From: a virus
Lineage: Duplodnaviria; Heunggongvirae; Uroviricota; Caudoviricetes
Reading direction: 5' to 3' (one strand)
Virus record (IMG/VR): IMGVR_UViG_3300045988_038444
Location: 1 to 43,689 of that record
Length of the DNA stretch: 43,689 nucleotides
A program made the translations under genes and the position numbers. This document shows, piece by piece, positions 16,146 through 41,378 of the stretch. The notes under the pieces were generated by a model. It did no database searches, was not told the DNA's origin, and saw nothing but the letters and a program-made list of their open reading frames with translations. Every line of letters begins with the position of its first letter. Within the stretch, counting starts at the first letter, position 1.

Positions 16146-16187
16146 TTTAAAATAATTCTTGACGGATTACACAATGATGTGTAACCT
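16146..16187 (+). promoter_or_regulatory. Early promoter copy P1 (TTTAAAATAATTCTTGACGGATTACAC; -35 TTGACG 16159-16164, 17-nt spacer, -10 TAACCT)
   Basis: One of ten nearly identical copies of this element. Confidence 0.7.
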
Positions 16188-16217
16188 ACAATCAACAAAA
16201 CAACGGAGAGTTACAAA

Positions 16218-16397
16218 ATGGCTACTTTCATCATTCTTTTCTTAATCGCTGCTGTATATCTGATCCCAGCACTCATCGCGATTAACGTTAAACATAAACA
16301 ACAAACAGCAATTATTTTACTTAACATCTTTGCGGGTTGGACATTCGTCGGTTGGTTAGGTGCGTTAATCTGGTCTGTGTTAAAAAGCGACAAATAA
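16218..16397 (+). CDS. Superinfection immunity (Imm-like) small membrane protein (59 aa)
   Basis: MATFIILFLIAAVYLIPALIAI...FAGWTFVGWLGALIWSV matches the Imm/PF14373-like pattern. GGAGAG SD. The track's minus ORF 16211..16393 is its shadow. Confidence 0.55.
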   Translation: MATFIILFLIAAVYLIPALIAINVKHKQQTAIILLNIFAGWTFVGWLGALIWSVLKSDK

Positions 16398-16398
16398 G

Positions 16399-17310
16399 AT
16401 GAGTAGGAAACGTTTAACCACAGAAGAGTTTATCACGCGTGCCCGTGAAGTTCATGGGCACAAATACGATTACTCACTAGTGGAGTATTTGAATTGGCGC
16501 ACACCTGTGAAAATCATCTGTCCTATACATGGAGTGTTTGAACAAATTCCTAATAATCATTTAAAAGGACGCAAGTGTTTATTCTGTGCAGGAAATCAAC
16601 AATCAAATACCAATGAATTTATCACAAGGGGGCGCGAAGTTCATGGGGGTAAGTATGGTTATTCGTTGGTGAAATATAAAGACTCTCGGACCAAAGTGAA
16701 AATCATTTGTCCAATACACGGAATGTTTGAACAACGTCCATATAGTCACTTGCAGCAAAAAGCAGGTTGCCCACAATGTGCTTGGGAACAATTGTCTGAA
16801 CAAAGACGTTTATCCGCCGAAGAATTCATTACTCGTGCTCGCGAAGTTCACGGGGACCGTTACGACTATTCGTTGGTGGAGTATGTTAACAATTCCACCC
16901 CTGTAAAAATTATTTGTTCAGAACACGGTGTGTTTGAACAGACACCGGGCAATCACACATTTATGAAAGCTGGCTGTCCCCAGTGCGCTGAAACAGGTTT
17001 TAATCCGTCAGAACCCGGCACGTTATATGTACTCGCTGATGATAAACAGTATCCCACTCTGATTAAAATTGGTATTACAAACGACTTAAAACAGCGACTA
17101 CGACAACTACAACGACGAACTCCGCATCTTGTGGTTAAACTTGTATCGTATCCGTTCCCACATGGCGCTGACGCTTACAAACTGGAACAAGAGGTACACA
17201 AGGTCTTTCACGAACTTAATGCGCGTCTCAAAGGCTTTGACGGTGCTACAGAGTGGTTTAAATACTCTCCTGCAATCCTCGATTACATAAATGAAAAAGC
17301 CCGGAACTAA
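16399..17310 (+). CDS. Homing-endonuclease-like protein HE-1: three N-terminal ~60-aa zinc-ribbon repeats + C-terminal T5orf172/GIY-YIG-like domain
   Basis: Three repeats of EEFITRAREVHGxKYDYSLVEY...KIICPIHGVFEQ...GCPQC. C-terminal GTLYVLADDKQYPTLIKIGITNDLKQRLRQLQRR. Inserted between the G/G-T chaperone genes and the tape measure. Confidence 0.6.
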   Translation: MSRKRLTTEEFITRAREVHGHKYDYSLVEYLNWRTPVKIICPIHGVFEQIPNNHLKGRKCLFCAGNQQSNTNEFITRGREVHGGKYGYSLVKYKDSRTKVKIICPIHGMFEQRPYSHLQQKAGCPQCAWEQLSEQRRLSAEEFITRAREVHGDRYDYSLVEYVNNSTPVKIICSEHGVFEQTPGNHTFMKAGCPQCAETGFNPSEPGTLYVLADDKQYPTLIKIGITNDLKQRLRQLQRRTPHLVVKLVSYPFPHGADAYKLEQEVHKVFHELNARLKGFDGATEWFKYSPAILDYINEKARN

Positions 17311-17330
17311 CCGGGCTTATGTTTATTTTT
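17297..17330 (+). terminator. Rho-independent terminator after HE-1
   Basis: Hairpin AAGCCCGGAACTAACCGGGCTT followed by a T-rich run. Confidence 0.6.
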
Positions 17331-18025
17331 CTTCATCTCGACAACACGTGCAGACCGCAATGCTGTTAACAATTTCCATAGGAACTGTACATCAACGTTG
17401 TACACCCGTGCGTAACGTTCACAGGCAACCCAATCACTATTTATCAAATCAAGATAAGCATACCAATAAAAAACAGCATCAGGTCGCAATTCAGGACGTT
17501 TCTGTACAACAACCGGAACAGATATACCACGTGCAGCCGCCCCTTGTGTAACCCAGTCCAGGTCGTCCCCGTCTGTCTTATCGTTCCACAAGAGGAAGTC
17601 GATCAGTTTTTTTCAATCTGTTTTTCCCATTCGTCCTGGAAGAATGCGGAATTAATTGCGAACTGAATAACACGGCTGTAGATCACCTGACCAAAACGTT
17701 CATCACTTAACAATTCAATAGCTTCTTCGACACTGAATGGTTCCGGTTTGTCATCTTCACCAATCAGTTTCCAGTCCAGCATAAGAACGTTAGCCACAAA
17801 CTTAACACCTTCTGGTGTATATTCCTGATTCCACAGTTTTTCAAAGAAGTTTTCAGACAACACACCGTTCTGTTTTACATAGTCCGCGACTGTTACGTTA
17901 TATACCTGGTTAGCGGTGTTCAGGTTCAACACGGTGATACTGAAATTTTCATTTAAAATCAGTTCAGCAGAAGACTTCAGCACCAGTGGAGAAAGTGCTT
18001 TTTTCAGATGGTCAAACTTTGACAT
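17307..18025 (-). CDS. Tail assembly chaperone G-T fusion via programmed -1 frameshift at AAAAAAC (~17606-17612)
   Basis: The -1 frame after the heptamer runs KKLIDFLLWNDKTDGDD... to 17307. This matches the canonical G/GT arrangement. Confidence 0.5.
17603..18025 (-). CDS. Tail assembly chaperone G
   Basis: 140-aa acidic protein upstream of the tape-measure region. It ends at a slippery A AAA AAC (plus strand 17606-17612) just before its stop. Confidence 0.55.
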   Translation of the reverse strand: MSKFDHLKKALSPLVLKSSAELILNENFSITVLNLNTANQVYNVTVADYVKQNGVLSENFFEKLWNQEYTPEGVKFVANVLMLDWKLIGEDDKPEPFSVEEAIELLSDERFGQVIYSRVIQFAINSAFFQDEWEKQIEKN

Positions 18026-18090
18026 GGTTTTTTTACCTTTTATGTAGTAGACGATTAGATAGTAATAGTTCTGTACAAATTACGCAAGAG

Positions 18091-18133
18091 ATTTAAAATA
18101 ATTCTTGACGAATTACATCTGTTAAGGTATCTT
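18091..18133 (+). promoter_or_regulatory. Early promoter copy P2 (-35 TTGACG 18105-18110, -10 TATCTT)
   Basis: Conserved element ATTTAAAATAATTCTTGACGAATTACA. Confidence 0.7.
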
Positions 18134-18165
18134 TAACTCAACGAAACGAACTGAGGGTAAGAGGG

Positions 18166-18789
18166 ATGGCGATTATTAACATGGGTTGGCATAGTTCTGT
18201 TTTTGAAGGAAATGTTAAACTCCTGGAAGGGGCATATAGTCCTATCCATCGTAATGATATTGGTGGCGATTACCCACCATCTTATTTTCTATACGAAACT
18301 GATCATGGGTGCTGTATCAAAGAACGTGAACGTAACGGTTACCATGATTCAGATTTTGAAATGTTAATATGGAACCCTGAAACAAAAAAGCGCTTCATGG
18401 TATACATTTGCAACTACCCGTGGTTGGTGTTATCCATGCTATGGTTCACGCCCAGATGCAACACCAGAAGTTTTAGAAGCATATAATATTTATGAACAAC
18501 AGCAAGAGGAAAAACGGCAACGTTATTGCAAAATAAAAAGAGTAAACAAGCAACGCAAACTGAACGCACAGTTTAGATTAATAGTACGTGAATTTGGTGT
18601 TGATCGCGAACAAGTTGAAAAACTTTATAAATTATATCACCCAGATATGTTCCCTGTATTTTGTAAACTTCTTAACAGTAATTTACGTTCTGATTTCCGT
18701 AAAAGTTTACGTAAACAACTAGTTGATTGGTTAAAAGGGAACGGTAAGTACGATAAACCATTTTCACCTAAACAAATTCAGTATTTATG
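18166..18789 (+). pseudogene. Split gene: N-terminal ORF 18166..18486 and a +1-frame continuation open 18368..18789, junction at an A6 run (18384-18389)
   Basis: Second frame open for ~140 codons with no ATG and ending 3 nt before the terminator; the two frames overlap only around gaaacAAAAAAgcgc. Confidence 0.4.
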
Positions 18790-18792
18790 AAT

Positions 18793-18819
18793 AAAAAAGC
18801 CCCGGTTTAACGCCGGGGC
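18793..18819 (-). terminator. Rho-independent terminator, strongest on the minus strand (after the major tail protein gene)
   Basis: Hairpin GCCCCGGTTTAACGCCGGGGC with an A6 run on the plus side, which is a U-run on the minus strand. Confidence 0.6.
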
Positions 18820-18839
18820 AACCACTACCAACCACCATG

Positions 18840-20297
18840 TCATGCTGTAGGCAGATATGGGAACAAGCTGAACCCAATCATAAAACCGATCGACTCTTCT
18901 TCGTGGGCGTTACCGCTAACAGTGACTTTCACTTTTTCGCCCGTCACAAGGTTTTTGGAACCGTCGCCCAGTGTCATCGCAGGAATGTTAACCACGATTG
19001 CACCGTCACCGTTTACCCCGGCAAGTTCGAAGTTGACTGTTGCGTTGTTACGGATCGCAGCCAGTACAGCACCGTCTGTCATCACCGTTTCAGTTTCCAT
19101 TGTGATTTCCAGGTTACCGATGTTGGTAAACGCAGCACCCATCACGCCCAGCACGTTTTCACCTGACACGTTGTTATTCACGGTGACAGTAACGTCTTTC
19201 AGGAACGTACTGAGTCCACTATCATCGATCCCGGTCAGTCGTACACGGTTCAGGTTCGTTACGGTGTTGTACGCTTCGTTAGCCACGAATTCAACATACC
19301 CGGAACCCGGCAGCGCGGTTTCTGACGGTGCTGATAAATCCTGTGCTACAAACGTCAGATCCATTGTCATTTTTTCAGTCAACGGTGCGTTGATCGTCAT
19401 CTGGTTTGCAGCTACAGCACGCGCATATTCATAAATAACAGGTGTCGTGTTGTAACGTACTTCCATTGTGTATTCAGTTTTAACGAACTCTGCAGAGTCA
19501 ACAGGAACGTTTCGAACAAAACTGGAAACAAATAAACGTACAGTTTTACCCGTACCTTCTTCAGTGGTGAATTCACTGTTAGCGAGAGTCAGAATATGAT
19601 CACCAACCATAGTCACACGGGCCATTTTACTGGTTACGGACTGTGTTAGACCATCAATATAAACATACTGTCCCGGTACTAAACCCAGTGTGGAAAAATC
19701 CAGGGTGGTAGACGTCAACTGACCATTACTGTTAACAGCGATTTCACCAGACGCTGCAGCATGCCCCACGAGATATAAACGAGCTTCAGCAGGCGGTGAC
19801 GCTTCGGCACTAAGCCCTGACACGTTGATAGCAGTAGTGGTACTATCAGCGCCTACAGTTTTCAAACCGTTGTTTGCAGCCAGTGTAAAACCTGTCGCAT
19901 AAACAAGAGCACCTTTAGGTAATGCCGCATCAAGAGTAGTAACGTTATAAGCATCAGCGCCAACACTGGTAACGTCAATATCAATTGCACCAGCACCGAC
20001 CCATTTACTATAAAGGAATCCGTCACCCCAGTAGCGGAACGTATCAAGTGTCAGGTCTGTCTGAAAGCCCGGTGCAACTTCAACGTTAGTTACCGTGCCT
20101 TTACGTGCAGATCGGTCCGTACTGATCGGTGTACGCTGAGTCTTTGTAATATCAGCACTGTAAGAACTGATTTCATTCGGTTGTTGAACCGTCCAGGGTG
20201 TACCAAAAACAGGTTCACAGACTTTTGCCACACTGAGTCGTGTTGCGTTTACATCAGTCGCAGGTGTTTGCGAACATTTAAAAATTGATTCAGCCAT
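18840..20297 (-). CDS. Major tail (tube) protein, 485 aa, with a C-terminal extra (Ig-like?) domain
   Basis: Abundant Thr/Val-rich beta protein at the position between the tail completion protein and the chaperones. Confidence 0.6.
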   Translation of the reverse strand: MAESIFKCSQTPATDVNATRLSVAKVCEPVFGTPWTVQQPNEISSYSADITKTQRTPISTDRSARKGTVTNVEVAPGFQTDLTLDTFRYWGDGFLYSKWVGAGAIDIDVTSVGADAYNVTTLDAALPKGALVYATGFTLAANNGLKTVGADSTTTAINVSGLSAEASPPAEARLYLVGHAAASGEIAVNSNGQLTSTTLDFSTLGLVPGQYVYIDGLTQSVTSKMARVTMVGDHILTLANSEFTTEEGTGKTVRLFVSSFVRNVPVDSAEFVKTEYTMEVRYNTTPVIYEYARAVAANQMTINAPLTEKMTMDLTFVAQDLSAPSETALPGSGYVEFVANEAYNTVTNLNRVRLTGIDDSGLSTFLKDVTVTVNNNVSGENVLGVMGAAFTNIGNLEITMETETVMTDGAVLAAIRNNATVNFELAGVNGDGAIVVNIPAMTLGDGSKNLVTGEKVKVTVSGNAHEEESIGFMIGFSLFPYLPTA

Positions 20298-20330
20298 TGT
20301 TCTAAGCCTCGTTTGATTGCAATCATTCGT

Positions 20331-20340
20331 AGTTTAATAT
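20331..20340 (-). promoter_or_regulatory. Candidate late promoter -10 (TATATTAAACT) about 34 nt upstream of the major tail protein ATG
   Basis: TAAACT lies at the same distance from the ATG as in the TerL and tape-measure upstream regions, but the CCCGTG part is absent. Confidence 0.25.
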
Positions 20341-20759
20341 ATTTCTTCGTATTCGTAACTAAGTACGACGTTCGTTAAAAACCACGCGTTATCACGACCC
20401 TGATGACGAATATCAACACTCGTGTAAATTAACGGGCGGTCCTGCCAGACACCTTCAAATAATTTTGCAAGCCGATCCGCAATATCAATACTCAAAGTGT
20501 CCATGCCATACTGAGCAGGTGTGCGTACCTGTAAAAAAACGTTTCCTGTTCTTAAACGACGACGACAAACACCTTCCCCACCCAGCGTGGTTATTGTCCA
20601 CGGACCGGGATTGTGTGTCAGAATCAGACCGGGTTTTTCTGTAGTGTCATCAGGGAGTTGACCAGAAGCGATTGTAAATCTGTCAGGCGTAATTTCCACG
20701 GGGAGATTCGCCAGAACGCGATTATAAACAATTCCTGAAACATCTGAGAGTGTCATCAC
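20334..20759 (-). CDS. Tail completion / tail terminator protein (SPP1 gp17-like, DUF3168-like pattern)
   Basis: 141-aa protein with IVYNRVLANLPVEITPDRF...P, at the synteny position. Confidence 0.4.
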   Translation of the reverse strand: MMTLSDVSGIVYNRVLANLPVEITPDRFTIASGQLPDDTTEKPGLILTHNPGPWTITTLGGEGVCRRRLRTGNVFLQVRTPAQYGMDTLSIDIADRLAKLFEGVWQDRPLIYTSVDIRHQGRDNAWFLTNVVLSYEYEEIY

Positions 20760-21184
20760 TGATTAAACCTCACCATTATTCCGGCTTTTAATATAGCACG
20801 TTCGACAAACCCGGAAGGTGTCTGTGTACTGCTACCACCATTGAGAACCCCAATGTAAGGAACGTTGTTAGTAATATGCAGTTCCTGACCATTAACTTTA
20901 ATACTGCTGATAGTGACTGTATCCTGTTCGATACGTGCTTTACTGGCTTCAACATTACCTGTTGGTGTATCAGGACTATTAGCGGGTTGCCCCTGATCGA
21001 ACCACCAGTTGTTGCTTGCCCAGCCACTCAATATTGGTGTACCATCAGGAGGCTCACTTATGAGTATGTTACGTAGTGTTAAAACATATCTAATGACTTG
21101 ACGATCCGTAAAATCTTGTAAGTCGGCTTTTATGTCTTTAAACACTCCAGTAATACGATTTATATCATTGATTTTGCTAGTCAT
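20756..21184 (-). CDS. Head-tail joining protein (HK97 gp10-like)
   Basis: Start trimmed to ATG 21184 to avoid overlap with the divergent HE-2; contains ISEPPDGTPILSGWASNNWW. Confidence 0.4.
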   Translation of the reverse strand: MTSKINDINRITGVFKDIKADLQDFTDRQVIRYVLTLRNILISEPPDGTPILSGWASNNWWFDQGQPANSPDTPTGNVEASKARIEQDTVTISSIKVNGQELHITNNVPYIGVLNGGSSTQTPSGFVERAILKAGIMVRFNQ

Positions 21185-21206
21185 TGACAAACCTAAAGGT
21201 AGAAAA

Positions 21207-22103
21207 ATGGGCGGTAAAAGACTAACCAAAGAACAACTAGAGCATAACATAAAAGATATTTGTCAATCAAAAAATTACAAATTTATAAAATGGAAAGACG
21301 GGTTTAAAAACAAAGAATCACGAATTATTTTATCTTGTGTTACACACGGGGAATGGGACACTAAATGTTATCATTTTTTGAATGGTTCTGGTTGTCCGAT
21401 CTGTGGTGGAACACGAACCACAAAAGGGTTAAGAATTGCACAGATTAAAGACAGTTTAACAAATTCTAAATCAAAGTTTATTAAATTTAAAACTAATTTT
21501 CAAAATGGAAATTCTGTTTGTTTGCTGAGCTGTATTGATCATGGTGGATGGGAGACAACAGTCAATAGACTAATCTTTACATCTGTTGATTGCCCGTTGT
21601 GTATAACGAATAGACAGAAAACTAAACAAGAACGAGAAATTGAAATAACAAATAGATGTAAAGAAACAGGGTTGTTTTTTAATAAGATATTCGACGAACA
21701 TCCGACATGGAAATCTAAAATATCATTAAAGTGTTCAACGCATGGTGATTTTGTTACAACAATTAATTCTTTTCTTAGTAAACAAAAAGGTTGTCCAAAC
21801 TGTAGTAAAACAGGGTTTAAAGCTGGTAAGTATGCAACACTTTATGTCTTGCGGTCCACATGCGGTCGTTACGTTAAAATAGGTATCAGTAATTGTGTAG
21901 AGCAAAGAATTAATACACTTCGTAGAAAAACACCATTTGATTTTCAAGTAATAGAAAAATTGAATGGACACGGGGCAACCATTCGTTCACTTGAAAAAGA
22001 TTTTCATTCTCATTTTGAATCTGCAGGATTAACCGGGTTCGATGGTTGTACAGAGTGGTTAAAATGGAATCCAAATATAACCACTCTGATACGGATGTTA
22101 TAG
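21207..22103 (+). CDS. Homing-endonuclease-like protein HE-2: three CxxHG...CPxC zinc ribbons + C-terminal T5orf172/GIY-YIG-like domain
   Basis: CVTHGEWDT..GCPICGG, CIDHGGWET..DCPLC and CSTHGDFVT..GCPNC. C-terminal ATLYVLRSTCGRYVKIGISNCVEQRINTLRRK...FDGCTEWLKWNPNITTLIRML. Start trimmed to ATG 21207. Confidence 0.6.
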   Translation: MGGKRLTKEQLEHNIKDICQSKNYKFIKWKDGFKNKESRIILSCVTHGEWDTKCYHFLNGSGCPICGGTRTTKGLRIAQIKDSLTNSKSKFIKFKTNFQNGNSVCLLSCIDHGGWETTVNRLIFTSVDCPLCITNRQKTKQEREIEITNRCKETGLFFNKIFDEHPTWKSKISLKCSTHGDFVTTINSFLSKQKGCPNCSKTGFKAGKYATLYVLRSTCGRYVKIGISNCVEQRINTLRRKTPFDFQVIEKLNGHGATIRSLEKDFHSHFESAGLTGFDGCTEWLKWNPNITTLIRML

Positions 22104-22481
22104 TTATACCGCTCCAACAGGATGAATAAATGCCATATCATCCCCTAACAATCGTGGGTTTTGACGATCAAGAAGGCGATATTCTTTACCACGTTCATCA
22201 ACCACAACATCACCCCGATCAGGAACAAATCGTGGTTCAAAACTCTGACTATCCATAATTACCATCGTTGTGGTTATTCTGGTCATAGTAGTCGGATCCC
22301 ACTTTTCTAATGGGTAAATATAACCACGACACGTATGCGATTCAGTAACGGTTGTACCCGGTAATGTAGGATTAGACGGGTTGGGAACTGTTATCACACG
22401 TTTTACCGTCAAATCCTCACCTACTTCAGCAAGTGCACGAGTAACACCTTTCAGGACACTTTGACGTTTGTCTGCCATCAC
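22104..22481 (-). CDS. Head closure / head-tail adaptor protein (putative)
   Basis: 125-aa protein in the connector module; called on synteny only. Confidence 0.35.
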   Translation of the reverse strand: MMADKRQSVLKGVTRALAEVGEDLTVKRVITVPNPSNPTLPGTTVTESHTCRGYIYPLEKWDPTTMTRITTTMVIMDSQSFEPRFVPDRGDVVVDERGKEYRLLDRQNPRLLGDDMAFIHPVGAV

Positions 22482-22952: not shown

Positions 22953-23162
22953 CAAATGGCTCTGGGTGATAATGAGGGTTTTACATAACTGGTCATCCAC
23001 ACCTGACGTCCCAACATACCCCTATGCGTGACACGTGAATAACCAGTTATGTAAAACGACACGCAGTTCAGGATGTTTCACAACATGCTTTACCCACGAT
23101 TTGCGGCTTTCCCGCCAGCAAGATAAGGATCACCTCCTTATCAGCGAGTGTTTGGGTTGTGG

Positions 23163-26568: not shown

Positions 26569-26978
26569 TATTCCACATCCTCATAATATGCAGTTCCACC
26601 GATACTATATCCCGTATATTCACCAGTCTGAAACTTTTTCAAAACTTCGTCATCAGTTATCAACGTACCAACAATGACGCCTGTCTGATCCAGTTTATCA
26701 ACCAGTCCAAAACTTGCTGCAATGTCTTCGGTCATCGGGAACGCAAACACAACTTTCCCAACAGGTTGTTGATTATGCATATTATCCATGATGCGCTGAT
26801 CAGAATTCATGAAGTCCAACCATGCTTTCAGAGTGACATCCTCGGGAAATTGCTCGTTGTCCGTGTCTGTGTAAATTTCTAACTGACCTGTCTCCTGATT
26901 ACGTTTTTTACAGATACTACCCCAACCGAATACCATACGTAGTGAGTTGTCAACCTTATTAACTTTTACGTTAATCAC
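26568..26978 (-). CDS. Hypothetical head-module protein (possible prohead protease, XkdF-like?)
   Basis: 136-aa protein between the HE fragment and the scaffold gene; the function call is weak. Confidence 0.3.
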   Translation of the reverse strand: MINVKVNKVDNSLRMVFGWGSICKKRNQETGQLEIYTDTDNEQFPEDVTLKAWLDFMNSDQRIMDNMHNQQPVGKVVFAFPMTEDIAASFGLVDKLDQTGVIVGTLITDDEVLKKFQTGEYTGYSIGGTAYYEDVE

Positions 26979-27385
26979 GGGGATTGTCCTCGTATTGTTT
27001 CAACATGACTAAATTCTAACATTTCGGATGAATAATTGCACTGGTGATACACGCTGTTTACAACGTTACCGAATATCTCAGAAAGATTCTTGATCGGTTC
27101 AACAGCAGTCGTTACTGGTTCAACAGCAGTCGTTACTGGTTCAACAGTAGTCGTTACCGGTTCAACAGTAGTCGTTACCGGTTCAACAGCAGTCGTTACT
27201 GGTTCAACAGCGTCCAGATGTTCAGCGACAACCTGGAAAAACACTGTGTTAGTTTCACGGTCAATAATAACCACTGTGCTGGAACTATCTTCAACAATGC
27301 TGAATGAGTAGTCGTAACGATCACCGTGAATTTTACGGGCGCGACGAATGAATTCGTCTGTAGCAACTCTGATGTTCGGATCCAT
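26975..27385 (-). CDS. Homing-endonuclease-related fragment: one EFIRRARKIHGDRYDYS module + (VEPVTTA)x6 repeat + short C-terminus; no nuclease domain
   Basis: DEFIRRARKIHGDRYDYSFS matches the HE-1 repeat. Start trimmed to ATG 27385 (AAGGG SD). Driven by the minus-strand promoter copy at 27416-27462. Confidence 0.5.
   Translation of the reverse strand: MDPNIRVATDEFIRRARKIHGDRYDYSFSIVEDSSSTVVIIDRETNTVFFQVVAEHLDAVEPVTTAVEPVTTTVEPVTTTVEPVTTAVEPVTTAVEPIKNLSEIFGNVVNSVYHQCNYSSEMLEFSHVETIRGQSP
27096..27215 (-). repeat. Tandem 21-bp repeat (ggttcaacagcagtcgttact, ~5.7 copies) encoding VEPVTTA heptads
   Basis: Copies at 27096, 27117, 27138, 27159 and 27180, plus a partial copy. Confidence 0.85.
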
Positions 27386-27415
27386 ACATTCAACCCTTCT
27401 TGTTCTCTTAACCAC

Positions 27416-27462
27416 AGGGTAGTTGTGTCGGTGTAATCCGTCAAGAATTATTTTGCGTATAG
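27416..27462 (-). promoter_or_regulatory. Early-type promoter copy on the MINUS strand (revcomp = CAAAATAATTCTTGACGGATTACACCGACACAACTACCCTGTGG), divergent from P3
   Basis: Near-identical (about 90%) to P3 over ~45 nt including the spacer; -35 CGTCAA at plus 27439-27444; -10 TACCCT. Confidence 0.65.
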
Positions 27463-27740: not shown

Positions 27741-27783
27741 CTTTAAAATAATTCTTGACGGATTACACCGACGCAACTATCTT
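27741..27783 (+). promoter_or_regulatory. Early promoter copy P3 (-35 TTGACG 27755-27760, -10 TATCTT)
   Basis: CTTTAAAATAATTCTTGACGGATTACACCGACGCAACTATCTT. Confidence 0.7.
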
Positions 27784-27814
27784 GTGGTTAACAGGAAGAA
27801 AAAGGAGACATGCA

Positions 27815-31340: not shown

Positions 31341-31384
31341 AGTTTAAAATAATTCTTGACACATTGCAAGCAGTAACACTAACA
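31341..31384 (+). promoter_or_regulatory. Early promoter copy P4 (-35 TTGACA 31355-31360, -10 TAACAT)
   Basis: GTTTAAAATAATTCTTGACACATTGCA. Confidence 0.65.
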
Positions 31385-31419
31385 TTTGTCACGAACGAAA
31401 CACACTGAGGAATCAAACA

Positions 31420-31923
31420 ATGACTAACCTGTATATCAAAAAACTAACACCCCACGCTGAACTTCCAACACGTGTAACACCAGACAGCGCCGGGTTAGAC
31501 GTTCGTGCTTGCCTATGGGAAGAATCGGTAACTATATTCACAGAATCAGGCGCTAAAGTGGAACGTCCGGTTGTTGCAGGAACAATCGCATTATGGCCCG
31601 GCGACCGCGCTATGATCCCCACTGGTCTGAAAATGTCAGTTGATAACGGATATTGCATTAAATTTTATCCACGTTCCGGCATGAGTCTTAAACACGGTTT
31701 GTCACTGATCAACTGTGTGGGTATCGGTGATCGTGATTACAAAGAAGAATACTACGTTACGCTGACTAACCACGGACAGAAATTACAGACTATCGCAGAC
31801 GGTGAACGCGTTTGCCAGCTTATGGTTGAACGTGTCGAACCTGTTAATCTGGTTGAAGTGGAAGAATTACCAGATGTTGATAGTCAGCGTAATGGCGGGT
31901 TTGGATCAACAGGACGGGTATGA
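31420..31923 (+). CDS. dut: dUTPase (deoxyuridine triphosphatase)
   Basis: Motifs AGLDVRA, YPRSGMSLKHG, GIGDRDYKEEYYV and QRNGGFGSTGR. Confidence 0.85.
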   Translation: MTNLYIKKLTPHAELPTRVTPDSAGLDVRACLWEESVTIFTESGAKVERPVVAGTIALWPGDRAMIPTGLKMSVDNGYCIKFYPRSGMSLKHGLSLINCVGIGDRDYKEEYYVTLTNHGQKLQTIADGERVCQLMVERVEPVNLVEVEELPDVDSQRNGGFGSTGRV

Positions 31924-32494: not shown

Positions 32495-32526
32495 TTCTTG
32501 ACGGATTACACAAGGACGTGTAACCT
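32487..32526 (+). promoter_or_regulatory. Early promoter copy P5 (-35 TTGACG 32498-32503, ext -10 TGtTAACCT)
   Basis: Identical to P1 over ~35 nt, including the spacer GATTACACAaggacGTGTAACCTACAA. Confidence 0.7.
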
Positions 32527-32556: not shown

Positions 32557-32901
32557 ATGTTATTCGCTATTTTATGGGTTCTTTTCTCTCTGATTATCGC
32601 GGGTGTTGCCAAACAAACGGGTCGCAACCCTGGTGCATGGTTCTTTATCGCATTTCTCACAAGTCCTGTGATCGGTGGTCTGATTCTGTTAATCGCATAT
32701 CTGTTTAACGGTAAGGTCGTAAGGGAACAACCGAAAGTGGTAACCACGGGGATGTTTAGTAACTACCTTGCAGCCTATAACTATGTTAATGAACATTACA
32801 CCATTGATACTGACTACCGGGCAGAAGCAGCCAGTGACCTGTTTAAGTATGCTACCTGTCGCGAGGACTGTGATAAACTGATCGCGAAGTACGTTAACTG
32901 A
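32557..32901 (+). CDS. Membrane protein (2 TM, 114 aa)
   Basis: MLFAILWVLFSLIIAGVA...WFFIAFLTSPVIGGLILLIAYLF; GGAGGA SD. Confidence 0.45.
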   Translation: MLFAILWVLFSLIIAGVAKQTGRNPGAWFFIAFLTSPVIGGLILLIAYLFNGKVVREQPKVVTTGMFSNYLAAYNYVNEHYTIDTDYRAEAASDLFKYATCREDCDKLIAKYVN

Positions 32902-33249: not shown

Positions 33250-33255
33250 AAATTA

Positions 33256-33283
33256 AGGGACCAGAAACGGTCCCTTTTTAATT
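33256..33283. terminator. Bidirectional rho-independent terminator between the converging + cassette and the portal gene
   Basis: Hairpin AGGGACCAGAAACGGTCCCT flanked by A/T runs on both sides. Confidence 0.7.
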
Positions 33284-34638: not shown

Positions 34639-34667
34639 GTTCTACAGGCTCCATACGGTTTACGGTT

Positions 34668-34680
34668 CTTAACGTATGTT
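34668..34680 (-). promoter_or_regulatory. Candidate late promoter (ext -10 CACTGATATAAC) upstream of the portal gene
   Basis: Minus strand ccatCACTGATATAACatacg, about 30-40 nt upstream of ATG 34638. Same motif as at 6204-6216 and 30168-30176. Confidence 0.4.
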
Positions 34681-34706: not shown

Positions 34707-34749
34707 TGTTAAAATAATTCTTGACGAATTGCAAACGTGCGATTATGCT
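34707..34749 (+). promoter_or_regulatory. Early promoter copy P6 (-35 TTGACG 34721-34726, -10 TATGCT)
   Basis: GTTAAAATAATTCTTGACGAATTGCA. Confidence 0.7.
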
Positions 34750-34780: not shown

Positions 34781-35092
34781 ATGAAACCGAATGAAAATAT
34801 TACACAACTGGATATTGCTTTTGGACCTAAAAACATTGCTGAATTTCTCCCGGCGATGGGTAGTATTCCGAAAGAATTTTTCGAAAATTCTAACCCGTGG
34901 AATCAGTGGGTCAGCAAATGGTTCTTCAACGGTCTGAAAGAATACGCAGTTGCTGTTGAAGGTGTGAACTTTAAAGATGCTCACGCGCATATCAAAGTGA
35001 TCCTGGGTAGTTTCGAACCTAAACACGAACATAAAATTGCCGGGTGTGCGTATCTCGCGTCAATGTGGTTTGTACCGGAGACAGTTAAATGA
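34781..35092 (+). CDS. Hypothetical protein (~103 aa)
   Basis: Start trimmed to ATG 34781 (AAGGGTGA SD). Confidence 0.45.
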   Translation: MKPNENITQLDIAFGPKNIAEFLPAMGSIPKEFFENSNPWNQWVSKWFFNGLKEYAVAVEGVNFKDAHAHIKVILGSFEPKHEHKIAGCAYLASMWFVPETVK

Positions 35093-35235: not shown

Positions 35236-35238
35236 ATT

Positions 35239-35397: not shown

Positions 35398-35399
35398 TC

Positions 35400-35890: not shown

Positions 35891-35977
35891 TTATTATGGA
35901 ATACATGTACATTGCTTTCTCACTTCTGTTAATGATTGTTGTCGTTATTACAACTGAGAAAAAAAGAACAAGGTGTG

Positions 35978-36172: not shown

Positions 36173-36198
36173 AAAAAAGCCCCGGACAGTTCCGGGGC
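36172..36198 (-). terminator. Rho-independent terminator (strong on the minus strand, after TerL)
   Basis: Minus strand GCCCCGGAACTGTCCGGGGC + U7. Confidence 0.7.
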
Positions 36199-36299
36199 GA
36201 AGTCGATTAGTAAAACGTGAACGCGGAAAACTGTAATGGTACTATGAACGGACTGGTAAACCCTCTGAAAACGGGCGGGAATAATCCCGCCACACTGTT

Positions 36300-38063
36300 T
36301 TAAAAAATGTCACCGTATTCAGGAGTACCAACAGGATTCACACTACCAGTAAATGGTTCTTCGACAAATTCGGTGCGTTTTGGTGATAGTGCAATAACCG
36401 CAGCGTCGAAAAAGTTTGGTGACTTACTTCCGTTTGGTTTCTTGTCGATCACAATCTTCCCGGCACCGTTACTGGTATACGTTGGCTGACTTAACTCAGC
36501 TTCTAACCGTTGTGCGTTTTCCAGTGACGGATCAATCAGAATGATTTCGTCCGGATCCTGTGGTTGACCTTCCACATACCATTTATAAATTCGCTGACAA
36601 CGCAGGCGTAACGCCCACGATGCTTGTGCTTTATAATTTGAGAAATAATCTTTGTTTGATTTACGGTCTTTGTCACCAGGTTTTGTACCACCGATAATAT
36701 CACCACCCGGATCCACAACTTTTCCATTCGGTAACCACGGGCGCACACGGAAGCGTAAAATATCTTTCCGGTCATTTGCCGCTACTTTAACGCCTGTACC
36801 AACACCGTTAACTTCGTACCAGTATTCATCAACACCCAGCATATTAGCCATCGTCAACATTCCCGGTGCAGCCAGTTCAGCACCCCTGTGGTCAAGTTGC
36901 AGATGTGTCAGGAATACACCGTGAGCAATTACCAGCGCACTGGCATCTTCCCCACCGTCTGCTGCGTCCTGTCCGGCAATACGTTGACCTGTTGGTGTAA
37001 GTAGTCCATTAACTTTGCGCCATTCTGTGTCACGGAAAGCGTCAAAAGCAGCGCGTACCCATTCAGCTTTAATCAACACCCCCTGAACAGCAGCGGCATA
37101 ATCGCGGTCAACTTCCTGTGCGAAAATATGCTGTAAACCTTTTTCAGCGAACGATTGTTTTTCTCGCTTATACCATTCATCGTCTTTAGCCGGGTGATCA
37201 CGCCAGTCAAGAACCATTACACGCAATTTACCACGGGGTAATTTCTTGCCCGGTTCCCATTCCAGACCAGCTTTACGATTACGATAAAAAACGTTACCAA
37301 CACCGTTAACTGAACTGATGTCGATACGAACGTTGGTGTTAGCTGACAACGACGCTTCAATCAGTTCAGGACGGTCTACGTGTGCCGCTTCGTCCAAGAA
37401 GTAGACAGATTTACGACCACCACGACCGATGTTGTCACCAGCTTCACCAGTAATTGTTGCACCGTTTTCAGGGTTGATACATTTCATGTAAACCAGATGG
37501 TCTTTTTCACGCAGACCAACAGGACGTAATTCCGGTGGTAATGCGCGGATAATCTGGCGAATCTTTTCAAAAATACTATCCGGGTCACCCAGTTTATCGA
37601 CAAGCTGCTCTTTACGTGACCCCCAGCCAACTGAAGAACCAGGACGATACAGCCACGCCCACACGGATAAACCACAGGCTACCCAGGTCGCACCATAGTC
37701 TCGTGATTTTTCCCAAAGTCCTTTTTCTTTGTCTTCAAGCGCTTCATAAACAAACTGAACCATATCGATCTGACGTTCGAAAAGGCAGAAAGGCATGTTG
37801 GGTGGATATTCAGTACCGACGTTACGCGGGTCGTAAGTAAACGCCCAGTCGAGGATAAACGCTACCGGGTTTGTTTCGTAATACTTTTTCAGCACCGGGA
37901 CAATTGCCCGATCCGTGCGCATACGGTTTAACAGGTTAATACGGTCAATGTAACACTGCTTGTAATCCGGGCGTGGCTGACCTTTTCGCCAGATACGTTC
38001 GTCATTTGCGTAGGCATCACGCCAGCGCGGGTAATTATGAATATTTCCAGTAAACTTATTCAT
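36300..38063 (-). CDS. Terminase large subunit
   Basis: 587 aa; Walker A-like ...YGATWVACGLS..., ATPase/nuclease two-domain size, located upstream of the portal. Confidence 0.8.
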   Translation of the reverse strand: MNKFTGNIHNYPRWRDAYANDERIWRKGQPRPDYKQCYIDRINLLNRMRTDRAIVPVLKKYYETNPVAFILDWAFTYDPRNVGTEYPPNMPFCLFERQIDMVQFVYEALEDKEKGLWEKSRDYGATWVACGLSVWAWLYRPGSSVGWGSRKEQLVDKLGDPDSIFEKIRQIIRALPPELRPVGLREKDHLVYMKCINPENGATITGEAGDNIGRGGRKSVYFLDEAAHVDRPELIEASLSANTNVRIDISSVNGVGNVFYRNRKAGLEWEPGKKLPRGKLRVMVLDWRDHPAKDDEWYKREKQSFAEKGLQHIFAQEVDRDYAAAVQGVLIKAEWVRAAFDAFRDTEWRKVNGLLTPTGQRIAGQDAADGGEDASALVIAHGVFLTHLQLDHRGAELAAPGMLTMANMLGVDEYWYEVNGVGTGVKVAANDRKDILRFRVRPWLPNGKVVDPGGDIIGGTKPGDKDRKSNKDYFSNYKAQASWALRLRCQRIYKWYVEGQPQDPDEIILIDPSLENAQRLEAELSQPTYTSNGAGKIVIDKKPNGSKSPNFFDAAVIALSPKRTEFVEEPFTGSVNPVGTPEYGDIF

Positions 38064-38089
38064 GGTTATCGGCCCGTTTGTAACTGTTC

Positions 38090-38112
38090 TGTATAGTTTA
38101 CCACGGGTGATT
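38090..38112 (-). promoter_or_regulatory. Candidate late promoter motif caCCCGTGgTAAACTataca about 32 nt upstream of the TerL ATG
   Basis: Paired with the near-identical motif upstream of the tape-measure gene. Confidence 0.35.
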
Positions 38113-38125
38113 GGTGGTGACAGAG

Positions 38126-38170
38126 ATTTAAAATAATTCTTGACAGATTGCAGAAGTGGTGTCAGACTCT
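38126..38170 (+). promoter_or_regulatory. Early promoter copy P7 (-35 TTGACA 38140-38145)
   Basis: GATTTAAAATAATTCTTGACAGATTGCA. Confidence 0.65.
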
Positions 38171-38200
38171 GATTATCAATTGAACAGGAGTAACACAGGT

Positions 38201-38533
38201 ATGAATATTAAAGACCACAACGGATTATTTAAAGAAGTTCTTACCGTTCGTCTTGAACGTAATGCACAACCTGAATACGGGCAAAATGCCGTTTACTGTG
38301 TTCATTTTAAAGACACTACATTTTCATATTTTGAAGATGATGTAGACACTGTTGAAATTGGTGGCGACCTTTCAATATTCGTAAAACTTTATAATACTGA
38401 ACTTATGACTTACATGCTTCAAACGGTCCTGAATACGTTCGGTCGCACTGACGGGGTGTGTGTCACTACTCAGACAAAACAACAGGTGTTGCAAAACATC
38501 CGTGAACTACTGGAGCGCGTCGACCATGGGTGA
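38201..38533 (+). CDS. Hypothetical protein (110 aa)
   Basis: Start trimmed to ATG 38201 with AGGAG SD. Confidence 0.45.
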   Translation: MNIKDHNGLFKEVLTVRLERNAQPEYGQNAVYCVHFKDTTFSYFEDDVDTVEIGGDLSIFVKLYNTELMTYMLQTVLNTFGRTDGVCVTTQTKQQVLQNIRELLERVDHG

Positions 38534-38708
38534 TAAACCAAGTCTGACACCGTGGCGGATCCGTTTAAATGGTGATGATATTAGTACCATTTATGCTTAT
38601 CAGGATAAACCACGAAATTTAGCGCTGGGGCAATACGCGCAATTATTCATGTTGTCGTCCTGGCAAATTGTGCAACGCACACTGGAAAAGATTAAAAGGG
38701 GTTGTTGA
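38526..38708 (+). CDS. Hypothetical protein (60 aa)
   Basis: ATG 38526 overlapping the upstream stop. Confidence 0.35.
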   Translation: MGDKPSLTPWRIRLNGDDISTIYAYQDKPRNLALGQYAQLFMLSSWQIVQRTLEKIKRGC

Positions 38709-38860
38709 TGATCATGAAACGCGTCGCCATTTCTGGTGTGGCCATTTTAATTCTTATAATAGTGTTTAGCATATTAATAGATAAAGGTGTGGATAATTTA
38801 TGTTTGCTTAATTTTATCAGTGTTACTTCTTTTTACCTTGGGTTATGGTGTTCAAAATAA
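38708..38860 (+). CDS. Small membrane protein (50 aa)
   Basis: ATG 38708 (AAGGGG SD); two hydrophobic stretches. Confidence 0.3.
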   Translation: MIMKRVAISGVAILILIIVFSILIDKGVDNLCLLNFISVTSFYLGLWCSK

Positions 38861-39249
38861 TGTGGAACATCTGTCATAAATCCGGGCGAGTACTGTTCAC
38901 TACGAATGATGAACGGACCGCTATGAATCGTGCTAAATATGGGTGGAGGGTTAAAAAAGTGGATGACCGTTACGAAATTGCAAAACAGCACGGAATGTCG
39001 ATAGAGTTCATCGACTGGTTTTGGGAGAACAAGAAAGCCAGTTTAGGTAGTGTCTGGTTTATCACTATGAGTACAATGTGGGAAGGGTGGAAAGGCGCGT
39101 TAGGTGATCCCGTGGGTGAAATTGTTGAAAGACCGTGTGAAGCAGAACTACGTTCTCCCGGTGAAACATACAAATACCTGCGTGGAAAACTCAACATGGA
39201 ACGTATGCCAGTAGGTACAAAGTTTTACGCCAGCCGAAACCCCTGTTAA
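38860..39249 (+). CDS. Hypothetical protein (~129 aa)
   Basis: TAATG-coupled ATG at 38860 within track ORF 38845..39249. Confidence 0.4.
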   Translation: MWNICHKSGRVLFTTNDERTAMNRAKYGWRVKKVDDRYEIAKQHGMSIEFIDWFWENKKASLGSVWFITMSTMWEGWKGALGDPVGEIVERPCEAELRSPGETYKYLRGKLNMERMPVGTKFYASRNPC

Positions 39250-39320
39250 ATTATTGTAAAACCCATACCATTCTTACCAGTTCCGCACTACCCTGAAACT
39301 ATCAAACAGGAGTGCGGAAC

Positions 39321-39527
39321 ATGTTCAGATACGTTTTAAAATTACTCGCCATTATTGCAACATGGCTAATCATACAGTCCGGGTATGACCTGCGTGTTCG
39401 TAACCAATGTTCAGACTATCAACGCATTACACGAACTGCGACAATCTACAGTCACGGTATTTGTTACGCGGCAGACAGTGACGGACAGTTTAAAATAATT
39501 CTTGACGGTTTACACATCATCAGATAG
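39321..39527 (+). CDS. Small protein with an N-terminal TM/signal (68 aa); its C-terminus (..[13 protein letters not shown]) is encoded by promoter P8
   Basis: ATG 39321 with AGGAG SD. Confidence 0.4.
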   Translation: MFRYVLKLLAIIATWLIIQSGYDLRVRNQCSDYQRITRTATIYSHGICYAADSDGQFKIILDGLHIIR

Positions 39528-39530
39528 ACT
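39490..39530 (+). promoter_or_regulatory. Early promoter copy P8 (-35 TTGACG 39502-39507, -10 TAGACT)
   Basis: GTTTAAAATAATTCTTGACGGTTTACA lying inside the 3' end of the upstream ORF. Confidence 0.7.
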
Positions 39531-39562
39531 TCAGTTTGTGTAAAACAACTGGAGTTATCACC

Positions 39563-39829
39563 ATGTTTAAAACTGGTCAACACGTAGAAGTCACCAGTCC
39601 ACGACTGTTAGAAGTTCTCGCACGTCGCAAATCTAAACCGTTCGGCACTGTTGTAGCGGTCGATCCGCAAGCTGAATACCCGGTTAAAGTTCGCATCACT
39701 GACGATACAGGGTTTCAAATCCCCTTCACGTTCAACGGTGAACAGTGCGATTACACTTTCTCATTTACTATGAACGGTCATCATGACCATCGTAGCCTGA
39801 CACCTGATTTAAGAGTGGTGAATGTATGA
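39563..39829 (+). CDS. Hypothetical protein (88 aa)
   Basis: Start trimmed to ATG 39563 (GGAG SD). Confidence 0.45.
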   Translation: MFKTGQHVEVTSPRLLEVLARRKSKPFGTVVAVDPQAEYPVKVRITDDTGFQIPFTFNGEQCDYTFSFTMNGHHDHRSLTPDLRVVNV

Positions 39830-40068
39830 TGAGTACGAAAACAACAATTATCAACTGTTTTCGGAAAGTTACTGGGTACGATCCGAATGTAATTATCACC
39901 GCCAACGGTTTGTATTATTCGGTAGATAATTATGGTCTGAACAATACTTTATGGAGTGTTCCACCACAACAAATTATTACTGACCATAAACAACCACATC
40001 GTAAAACAGGTATTGCAAAAGCCCGACGCGATGCGAAGAAAAGAAGGAACCGGAAATTAAACGGTTGA
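39826..40068 (+). CDS. Hypothetical protein with a basic C-terminus (80 aa)
   Basis: ATGA-coupled start; C-terminal [26 protein letters not shown]. Confidence 0.45.
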
Positions 40069-40102
40069 TTATCTCATTCACAAATTAAACAGGAAAACAA
40101 AT

Positions 40103-41017
40103 ATGAACTTCTTTAAAAACGCTATTATTTATCGTCTGACTAATCCTATGGCACTAATGGCCCAGTTGCCAACACTGGAAGACAGCCTGTGTGCGTTTCA
40201 ATTCAATCCATGTGGTTCACAGGATATGGCGCGTACTGGTTGGGTTCCGGCAACTGAACAACATCATACGCTGGTTCACCAGGCTAATGGGCAATATCTG
40301 CTGACCATCCAGAAACAGGAAAAGATTATTCCTGGTCCGGTCATTAAACAGCATCTGAACGCGCGAATCGCCAAACTGGAAGCGGAACAGGCGCGTAAAC
40401 TGAAGAAAACAGAGAAAGATAGCCTGAAAGATGAAGTATTGCACAGTCTGTTACCACGAGCATTCGTTAAAAACAGTCGTACACAGTTGTGGATTGATAT
40501 CACTAGCGGGTTGATCGTGGTTGATGCGTCCAGTGCTAAACGGACTGAAGACGCATTAGCACTATTGCGTAAATCCCTGGGTAGTCTGCCAGTCGTCCCA
40601 CTGACAACTGAAAACCCTGTTGAACTGACAACAACGGAGTGGGTACGTTCAGGAAACGCGCCAACAGGTTTCACAATGGGTGATTCTGCGGAATTGAAAG
40701 CAATCCTGACTGACGGCGGTGTTGCACGCGTTAAAAAACAGGATTTAACCAGTGATGAAATAGCCACGCATATTGAAGCAGGAAAAGTTGTTACAAAACT
40801 GGCTCTGAACTGGCTGCAGCGGGTAACGTTTACGCTAACTGACAGCATGACGTTAAACCGTGTGAAATTCTGCGACGGGTTGCTCGACCAGAACGACGAT
40901 ATCGATCGTGAAGACAGTCTGACACGATTTGACGCTGATTTTGTACTAATGACAGGTGAACTTCAGGCGCTGATCAAACAACTTATCACTGCTTTGGGTG
41001 GGGAGGCTAAACGATGA
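40103..41017 (+). CDS. rdgC: Recombination-associated protein RdgC
   Basis: Strong end-to-end similarity to E. coli RdgC by recall (e.g. [105 protein letters not shown]). Confidence 0.85.
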
Positions 41018-41346
41018 GAACAGAACAGGAACGTATTATTCAGTGGTTATGTTCTGGTGAAACCGGACTAAGCTCTAAAACGATGGTCTGCATTCACACG
41101 GGTAATGAAATGGGTTACGGCTGGGAGTTTAGAGCACCCTTTGACGTTTCTGATTTTCGCCGTTGTTGGTTCCTGGTTGAAGCTGTGCCAGAAATCAGAA
41201 ACAGTTTTCCGTTGATTGCTGAAAAGTGTCCGGCGTTTAAAGGTGTGATTGAAAACTGGGACGTTATTAGCGCAGCTTATGAACGTGAACGCGGATCCGG
41301 TAAATGTCCTGAAACGTATCGGTTACTGAAAGAAAGTTTAAAATAA
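41014..41346 (+). CDS. Hypothetical protein (110 aa); its C-terminal ..SLK* is encoded by the UP element of P9
   Basis: Track ORF, ATGA-coupled to rdgC. Confidence 0.45.
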
Positions 41347-41378
41347 TTCTTGACGGGTTGCACAAGGAAGTGTAATAT
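41336..41378 (+). promoter_or_regulatory. Early promoter copy P9 (-35 TTGACG 41350-41355, ext -10 TGtTAATAT)
   Basis: GTTTAAAATAATTCTTGACGGGTTGCA. Confidence 0.7.

Follow-up and report, generated by a model that had tools for sequence, protein, structure and literature searches.

A probable sigma70 early promoter module, repeated around a rigid 26-nucleotide core, in 9NA-like siphoviruses

UP-element promoters, such as rrnB P1, were reportedly described by Ross and co-workers in 1993. Promoter-early stem-loop (PeSL) cassettes are known from T4-type phages (Arbiol et al. 2010, PMC2839356; Comeau et al. 2014, PMC4122927), and the early promoters of T4 have been presented as 'uber' UP/-35/TGn/-10 promoters, whose alignments 'reveal additional regions of consensus' (Hinton 2010, PMC2988021). 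Here we analyse a repeated element in a 43,689-nucleotide (nt) stretch of viral DNA (IMG/VR record IMGVR_UViG_3300045988_038444, positions 1 to 43,689; hereafter the window), which belongs to a 9NA-like siphovirus (Nonanavirus/Sashavirus). Escherichia phage KarinMuster_Bas82 (hereafter Bas82) shows 95.6% identity to the window over 86% of a 20-kilobase query, and the Salmonella phages Sasha, Sergei and 9NA, together with Klebsiella phages, are 78-92% related to it. The ten repeats found in the window very probably represent one family-specific sigma70 early promoter of the 9NA-like siphoviruses, which forms a portable module. The motif is annotated in none of the GenBank records of 9NA, Sasha, Bas82 and Carvaje, and a search of the literature on this group and for the sequence strings, which did not cover the likeliest source (Zeng et al. 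2019, PMC6819911), found no description of such promoters.

The 18-mer TTTAAAATAATTCTTGAC occurs exactly eight times on the plus strand, at 16146, 18092, 27742, 31343, 32485, 38127, 39489 and 41337, and once more with one mismatch (34708, plus strand), whereas a minus-strand copy (27440-27457) has three mismatches, all within its first three bases. The plus-strand copies are referred to as P1 to P9 in their order along the window, and the minus-strand copy as Pm. Against these ten copies, dinucleotide-preserving shuffles of the window yielded on average 0.10 matches, and never more than 2. Nine plus-strand copies and a single minus-strand copy had already been listed in an earlier note on this DNA; they are real, and the coordinates given there lie within 2 nt of ours. 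Indeed, the most over-represented 8-mers of the whole window are pieces of the motif. Further occurrences of ATTCTTGA and TAATTCTT were considered as extra copies and rejected as scattered chance matches. An eleventh match (2489-2506, minus strand) corresponds to the variant TTTTAAATAATTCTATACGGTTTACC, in which TTCTATAC replaces TTCTTGAC. It occupies, in antisense orientation, the 40-nt interval that separates the DNA polymerase gene from the plus-strand gene following it, is kept at the same place in Bas82, 9NA and Carvaje, and could be a decayed copy or an antisense promoter.

All ten copies present the same order of elements: an A/T block, TTGAC(G/A) as -35, one base, ATT(A/G)CA or a variant of it (hereafter the box), a -10 element, an A/C-rich leader, a Shine-Dalgarno sequence and an ATG. 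The -35 hexamer is TTGACG in eight copies and TTGACA in two. A -10 element with T-12, A-11 and T-7 stands at 16-18 base pairs (bp) in nine of the ten, as TAnnnT after 17 bp in eight copies and after 18 bp in P4, while P7 carries CAGACT. The ATG is found on the same strand in every case, 68-77 nt from the motif start. The earlier note had ascribed a consensus -35, a 17-bp spacer and a following ATT(A/G)CA to each copy. The -35 is indeed near-consensus and the spacer length holds in eight copies, but not in P4, and P7 deviates in its hexamer; the box is intact in eight of ten and altered in P8 (TTTACA) and P9 (GTTGCA).

The same note had suggested a profile of the copies and a search of related phages. 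Copies were gathered from Bas82, 9NA, Sasha, Carvaje and IMG/VR contigs and reduced to 64 contexts differing in the 70 nt downstream; they form a family in which the core of the motif is conserved. TTGAC, part of the stretch by which the copies were selected, occurs in 62 of the 64. Among the positions outside the selection, T occupies -47 (89%) and -46 (88%), and G occupies -30 (77%) and -29 (72%). A near-invariant core of 26 nt extends from -48 to -23 and includes the box, with A at -28 (95%), T at -27 and -26 (100% each), C at -24 (98%) and A at -23 (92%); -25 is always a purine (A/G, 47/53) and never a pyrimidine. The TAnnnT element is found at exactly 17 bp in 43/64 contexts and at 16-18 bp in 54/64, every other offset accounting for fewer than 6/64, and its profile (T-12 72%, A-11 80%, T-7 80%) is the textbook sigma70 pattern. 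The predicted start is an A in 59% of the copies, preceded one base earlier by a C in 50%, and, for the 54 family copies with a start codon, this codon mostly lies 53-65 nt after TTGAC. This profile bears out, at the level of the sequence, the remark of the earlier note that the likeness of the copies goes well beyond what the hexamers need. On the other hand, the A/T block is conserved at -48 to -37 only (about 12 nt, the length of a proximal UP subsite), and the region from -60 to -49 is not conserved. Since nothing is conserved upstream of -49, the UP element that had been assigned to each copy amounts at most to the proximal subsite.

Comparison of six orthologous promoter positions in the window, 9NA and Carvaje revealed that the 26-nt core differs by 6.7%, whereas the 27 nt upstream and 37 nt downstream differ by 49%. 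This difference indicates that selection, and not only recent duplication, maintains the likeness, and the core is, judging from these alignments, under purifying selection. Recent duplication, one of the explanations offered in the earlier note, applies to two pairs only. P1 and P5 are alike over ~58 nt with 6 mismatches, further than the ~35 nt claimed, and the claimed likeness of P3 and Pm over ~45 nt was recovered in the alignment; the other copies have orthologues in 9NA and Carvaje, with diverged spacers and an unchanged core. In Proteus phage PmiS-Isfahan and Flyfo Tbat2_2 (portal 60-63% identical), the motif becomes AAAATAT(A/C/G)GCTTGAC-r-GATTRCA. This clade keeps the A-tract, CTTGAC and the TT-purine step, while positions -39 to -37 are altered in all copies together; for instance, -38 is A in four of six Proteus copies and C in eight of ten motif-type Flyfo copies (an eleventh listed Flyfo match, at 3876, looks spurious). 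Such a joint change is presumably the signature of concerted evolution. In Vibrio relatives (portal 42% identical), the motif is absent and other repeats are present instead.

The location of the copies was assessed by overlaying the Bas82 annotation on the window. The late structural genes thus located (large terminase, portal, head, neck, tail and tape-measure) all run along the minus strand, and the nine plus-strand copies are the heads of short plus-strand accessory cassettes wedged among these late blocks, the tenth copy heading an inserted minus-strand gene. The earlier description of promoters scattered through the late operon was thus right in geography but wrong in strand and function. 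The cassettes encode an Imm-type superinfection immunity protein, a T5orf172/DUF723 endonuclease-like protein, a dUTPase, RdgC and many ORFans. Terminator-like hairpins stand at the cassette ends that face the late genes, and two of these hairpins are readable from either strand. In 9NA, Bas82 and Carvaje, the motif also heads an operon holding the DNA polymerase and other replication genes, in a region outside the window, as well as a unit downstream of the primase. The presence of canonical hexamers in front of ORFans and of genes for replication, nucleotide metabolism and superinfection exclusion would most simply be explained, by analogy with T4, by early promoters for the unmodified host polymerase. 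Repeated and dispersed copies, in phages whose relatives carry a ParB-like gene, could also be sites for a replication, partition or packaging protein, or repeat debris. This is extremely improbable, given that every copy faces the next gene at a fixed start-codon distance, that the -10 pattern appears at one offset only, that copies stand at cassette heads and terminator-like hairpins at cassette ends, and that the motif is not palindromic.

A first search of the sequence collections with the 15-mer alone yielded mostly chance matches and was replaced by a 23-nt pattern, which finds the 9NA-like family in IMG/VR. In the representative genomes of 185,579 bacterial species, this pattern gave four single matches only, one of them a spacer of a clustered regularly interspaced short palindromic repeats (CRISPR) array. 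This 32-nt spacer, TTAAAATAATTCTTGACGTATTGCACTGATGT, is found in Yersinia pekkanenii (NZ_CQAZ01000023.1, ~1143-1174, minus strand) between 28-nt repeats GTTCACTGCCGTACAGGCAGCTTAGAAA, which we take to be of type I-F. Since the spacer consists of the promoter core and six further bases, it could by itself partly match every promoter copy of such a phage. Sixteen IMG/VR loci with the core share no other DNA with 9NA-like phages. Ten of these, and the GenBank phage ST512-KPC3phi13.3 (MK422448; core at 3444-3469), are Klebsiella temperate phages, each with a single, identical 26-nt core located between two small genes beside the tail fibre gene. Here too, the -10, the Shine-Dalgarno sequence and the ATG are in register, upstream of an 85-amino-acid (aa) gene, whose product has no homologue in the 9NA-like loci.

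Within the 9NA-like family, the copies coincide with breaks in homology. Alignments of the window with Bas82, 9NA and Carvaje repeatedly break at +25, where the core ends, or around the start codon (+58 to +84), and 14 of the 71 homology junctions fall within the 3.9% of the sequence that adjoins copies (P = 5e-7). P1 with the Imm gene and the endonuclease-like gene forms an insertion absent from 9NA and Carvaje, Pm with its open reading frame (ORF, 26975-27415) one absent from 9NA, and a variant copy marks the exact end of a block of five Bas82-specific genes. In Bas82 (~10305-10345) and 9NA (~48600-48640), ATTGCACAAGGATGTGTAAAAT stands directly upstream of one copy; it resembles the segment from box to -10 of another copy, joined to the A/T block, and is a possible recombination scar. 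The earlier idea that the promoters spread with their cassettes is supported by the copy-bounded insertions, by the junctions at copies and by the core in unrelated temperate phages.

These observations also bear on another explanation, the concerted evolution of a mobile regulatory cassette, whose copies would be homogenised or replaced by recombination and duplicated before incoming genes, as has been put forward for PeSLs, the box simply hitch-hiking. The joint change at -39 to -37 in the Proteus and Flyfo copies, the recent duplicates (P1/P5 and P3/Pm) in front of unrelated genes, the clustered junctions, the end of the Bas82 block, the fused fragment and the move of the core to temperate phages all speak for it, and we consider it a serious possibility, though not the one that we favour. 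Indeed, the same 26 nt is found in phages of Escherichia, Salmonella and Klebsiella (~75-85% DNA identity) while orthologous spacers drift, and such identity across three host genera is hard to reconcile with a hitch-hiking box. Moreover, marked spacer hairpins (-8.4 to -8.9 kcal/mol) are confined to P1, P5 and P9, three of the ten copies; P6 has a shorter one, the other copies resemble shuffled sequences, and the stem-loop half of a PeSL is absent.

Returning to the early promoter module, the host sigma70 RNA polymerase most likely reads it unaided. The AAAATA block (about -45 to -40) is the proposed contact of the alpha C-terminal domains and TTGAC(G/A) at -35 that of sigma region 4, and the degenerate TAnnnT located 17 bp downstream would serve as -10, with transcription starting at the C/A step ~7 nt past it. 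The Shine-Dalgarno sequence would be carried by a 24-29-nt A/C-rich leader. Each module would drive one to six small genes, accessory or of DNA metabolism, oriented head-on to the late structural genes that flank the insertion site, and, outside the window, the DNA polymerase operon. The core behaves as a portable unit, copied before new genes, positioned at cassette-swap junctions and passed to unrelated temperate phages. From the repeat itself, its anatomy, conservation, context and spread, we infer that the module is active, fires early and is contacted by the polymerase as proposed. It is ordinary in kind, but its core is unusually rigid, family-wide and strongly constrained.

Several points weigh against this proposal. 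The -10 hexamers are weak (for instance TAACCT, TATCTT and CAGACT) and none carries a TG extension, so that promoter strength is not readable from the sequence. To our knowledge, the known contacts of sigma70 or alpha do not account for a stretch, -28 to -23, as invariant as the -35. The early timing is deduced from the promoter type and gene content only, and a literature search found no 5'-end or expression data for any member of the 9NA-like group. Finally, some clustering of the junctions is to be expected in any case, since it is here that conserved late genes border on variable cassettes.

As the earlier note had suggested, the box could be recognized by an additional phage or host protein that reads ATT(A/G)CA at -28 to -23 alongside the host polymerase. 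Such a protein could be a global repressor, ending the early units at the time of head-on late transcription, or a MotA-like co-activator. Its existence is suggested by the invariance of the box, which equals that of the -35, by the strict purine at -25, and by the survival of the box in orthologues whose neighbouring spacer has diverged by ~49%; a GATTRCA-like box persists even in PmiS-Isfahan, whose portal is only 60% identical. In addition, promoters stand back to back with late blocks at six sites, where a single switch protein would be useful. On the other hand, the identical single-copy core in Klebsiella temperate phages, whose DNA has nothing else detectable in common with that of 9NA-like phages, argues against the need for a factor specific to the latter. 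The box alone is not enriched in the window (38 matches for 38.75 expected), Pfam searches of 30 window proteins gave no DNA-binding, MotA or AsiA domain, and in Flyfo Tbat2_2 the box is relaxed to little beyond TT and one base (a purine, one copy excepted). Promoters that fire immediately after infection, moreover, cannot need a protein that is yet to be made. Overall, we consider the involvement of an additional protein unlikely.

Related interpretations of the box were considered. It is rather doubtful that the box is either the operator of a regulator silencing all 10-17 copies and possibly activating the adjacent late units, or a new polymerase contact or DNA-shape signal. As a speculation, the polymerase itself might read the box through DNA shape, with (G/A)ATT and two pyrimidine-purine steps favouring a bend beside the -35. 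By informal comparison, we know of no fit of the box to the sites of the host factors Fis, IHF, DnaA, CRP and OmpR or to the marbox. Two palindromic operators were rejected: TAATTC-TTGAC-GAATTA is free of mismatches in P2 and P6 alone and the Proteus clade lacks it, and TTACAC-N6-GTGTAA is restricted to the P1, P5 and P9 subfamily.

The box might also be the -35 of an overlapping promoter of opposite direction, the motif being one half of a bidirectional promoter. In four of the 64 contexts, the reverse strand carries TTGCAA at -27 to -22, followed after exactly 17 bp by TAAACT or TATGAT at -45 to -50, and ~30 nt further on by the Shine-Dalgarno sequence and ATG of a divergent non-structural gene. 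These contexts are the helicase-side unit of 9NA and of Bas82, and the DUF6378/NinH block at P4 and at its Sasha orthologue; Flyfo back-to-back pairs share the geometry. For instance, the divergent promoter predicted over P4 (31341-31369, minus strand) has its -35, TTGCAA, at 31364-31369, which covers five of the six bases of the P4 box, then a 17-bp spacer, the -10 TAAACT (reverse complement of 31341-31346), the Shine-Dalgarno sequence GAGGAA and an ATG at ~31312, which opens the DUF6378 and NinH block. However, since both reverse hexamers are present in only 4/64 contexts, such an arrangement cannot explain the other 60; A is found at -22 in 23% and at -50 in 23%. P5, P8 and P9 have no divergent gene, and the reverse -10 is defective beside all four late structural blocks (TAAACG, TAAATC, TAACAC). 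A bidirectional promoter is therefore quite unlikely to account for the box, though a divergent promoter may be its origin.

Individually, the copies are arranged as follows. P1 (16146-16187, plus strand) has its A/T block at 16146-16158, -35 TTGACG at 16159-16164, box ATTACA at 16166-16171 and -10 TAACCT at 16182-16187; transcription is predicted to start at ~16194, upstream of the ATG at 16218, which belongs to the Imm-like gene and precedes a T5orf172-type gene. The boundary between the P1 cassette and the tail-chaperone genes carries a terminator-like hairpin reading on both strands (17297-17318). P2 (18092-18133, plus strand) shows -35 TTGACG at 18105-18110, box ATTACA at 18112-18117, -10 TATCTT at 18128-18133 and the ATG of a 106-aa ORFan at 18166. 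P3 (27742-27783, plus strand) has its -35 at 27755-27760, box at 27762-27767, -10 TATCTT at 27778-27783 and an ATG at 27810. Its inverted duplicate, Pm (27416-27457, minus strand), has the -35 at 27444-27439, box at 27437-27432, -10 TACCCT at 27421-27416 and an ATG at ~27389; it drives, by its position, the ORF 26975-27415, and neither this promoter nor the gene is found in 9NA. P4 (31343-31385, plus strand) comprises -35 TTGACA at 31356-31361, box ATTGCA at 31363-31368, an 18-bp spacer, -10 TAACAT at 31380-31385 and the ATG of the dUTPase at 31420.

P5 (32485-32526, plus strand), the near-duplicate of P1, is located inside a plus-strand cassette, with its -35 at 32498-32503, box at 32505-32510, -10 TAACCT at 32521-32526 and an ATG at 32557. 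A second hairpin reading on both strands (33255-33276) marks the boundary between the P5 cassette and the end of the portal gene. In P6 (34708-34749, plus strand), whose first base is G instead of T, the -35 is at 34721-34726, box ATTGCA at 34728-34733, -10 TATGCT at 34744-34749 and the ATG at 34781; its cassette ends at a terminator-like hairpin (36274-36291, plus strand) facing the end of the large terminase gene. P7 (38127-38168, plus strand) has -35 TTGACA at 38140-38145, box ATTGCA at 38147-38152, the weak -10 CAGACT at 38163-38168 and an ATG at 38201. P8 (39489-39530, plus strand) is internal and overlaps the end of ORF 39312-39527; its -35 is at 39502-39507, its variant box TTTACA at 39509-39514 and its -10 TAGACT at 39525-39530, with an ATG at 39563 and RdgC further on. 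P9 (41337-41378, plus strand) carries its -35 at 41350-41355, variant box GTTGCA at 41357-41362, -10 TAATAT at 41373-41378 and the ATG of a 63-aa ORF at 41413, behind which a terminator-like hairpin is found (41615-41628). Beyond P1, the predicted transcription starts are ~18140 (P2), ~27790 (P3), ~27409 (Pm, minus strand), ~31392 (P4), ~32533 (P5), ~34756 (P6), ~38175 (P7), ~39537 (P8) and ~41385 (P9).

Some features of the genes and leaders near the copies deserve mention. The window holds two paralogous endonuclease-like genes of the T5orf172/MUG113 type with a zinc finger (DUF723/CapR), at 16399-17310 and 21132-22103, both on the plus strand. The second is located between neck genes in a ~940-bp stretch (~21170-22110) devoid of a Bas82 DNA match, and no canonical promoter copy is found upstream of it. 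The ORF behind Pm contains 5.5 copies of a 21-nt repeat (27096-27211). In some cases, copies precede a conserved non-coding stretch of at least 60 nt (CATAGACAAGATACCTGACCAAGTATGTAGTAACCCGG...) instead of a gene start; in 9NA (~3750-4004, minus strand), the next annotated gene is ~250 nt downstream, and two further loci are similar. This stretch could be a long leader or a small RNA. Rfam and transfer RNA (tRNA) scans of the window found nothing; a tRNA-like remnant with GGTTCGATTCCAACC at ~23080-23160 (minus strand), called by neither ARAGORN nor Rfam, occupies the position syntenic with a tRNA-Ser of Carvaje.

A corresponding late-promoter motif was sought among 9-mers shared upstream of the late blocks, which gave only the reverse complement of the early motif. 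The element CCGTGNTAAA, with at most one mismatch, is found 42 times on both strands of the window, against 12.4 +/- 3.5 expected. It occurs exactly at 13493 (plus), 16117 (minus), 28774 (plus), 37227 (minus) and 38097 (minus), and two of the exact sites stand on the late strand ~20 nt from an early-promoter edge, before the tape-measure and large terminase genes. Since it is over-represented throughout the window, it is not specific, and we rejected it as a late-promoter motif. The sequence CACTGATATAA(T/C), which resembles an extended -10 (TGnTATAAT) without a -35, is present on the minus strand at ~6190-6215 and ~34655-34670, upstream of the lysis block and the portal gene, and these sites may be late promoters. 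In Vibrio relatives, CGTGATATACT precedes late genes. Upstream of the small terminase gene, on the late strand, lie a tandem array of 6.6 copies of the 21-nt unit GAACCACCTGTATCACGAGTG (43500-43637) and, nearby, 24- and 31-nt repeats (42775-42850), which resemble iterons or a pac region. In the Proteus and Flyfo relatives, another repeat of ~19 nt (TAACAGGTGCTTGTGACTG in Proteus), which also contains CACCTGT, is present 6-10 times.

The proposed module would provide a transcription map for a poorly studied phage group, with ~10-17 early promoters, each reading a small cassette against the late genes. The 26-nt core can serve as a search key for cassette boundaries and for tracing gene flow, and already connects the 9NA-like phages with Klebsiella temperate phages and a Yersinia CRISPR spacer. 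The box beside the -35 poses a clean, testable question on promoter recognition or phage regulation. If the units are indeed strong, they may be useful as compact promoter and leader parts.

Among the known systems, phage phi29 offers an analogy only. Its divergent early and late promoters are switched by the protein p4; in the 9NA-like phages, early and late units likewise diverge from short shared regions, where one protein could repress and activate, but no p4-like protein or upstream inverted repeats were found. A conserved box that is specific to the phage and lies close to -30, next to or inside the site of sigma region 4, is also a feature of the MotA-dependent middle promoters of T4. 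There, however, the MotA box (a/t)(a/t)TGCTT(t/c)a stands in place of the -35, whereas here the -35 is intact and the box differs in sequence and position. A MotA-dependent middle promoter was rejected on these grounds and on the lack of MotA or AsiA, both in the Pfam matches of the 30 proteins and in the annotations of the relatives. Promoters of a phage RNA polymerase (T7 or N4 type) were likewise rejected, as canonical hexamers are present and the annotations of Bas82, 9NA and Carvaje include no RNA polymerase gene.

The A-tract-rich block immediately upstream of the -35 is shared with UP-element promoters of the rrnB P1 type, though only ~12 nt are conserved here and there is no conserved distal subsite. 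The T4 early promoters, like the module proposed here, are made for the unmodified host sigma70 polymerase, show consensus beyond the hexamers and a UP-like block, and are thought to out-compete host promoters. They differ by their TGn and near-consensus -10, in contrast with the weak, variable -10 without TGn found here, and the extra conservation of the 9NA-like copies lies directly downstream of the -35. PeSLs are the nearest elements yet described. Like the copies described here, they are early promoters of a strong, sigma70-like type, present many times over, with an A/T-rich region upstream and ORFans or variable genes downstream; they are found at insertion, deletion and replacement junctions between close relatives, and sometimes inside conserved modules. 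On the other hand, a PeSL has a G/C-rich stem-loop that terminates upstream transcription, whereas here a modest spacer hairpin is limited to P1, P5 and P9 and the terminator-like hairpins stand at the cassette ends. PeSLs cluster in hyperplastic regions, while the 9NA-like copies alternate with the late structural genes, on the strand opposite to these, and their core, with 26 nearly invariant positions, is far more rigid. Since the defining stem-loop terminator is missing, the 9NA-like copies are not filed as PeSLs, but they appear, from the comparison of related genomes, to behave like PeSLs in genome evolution.

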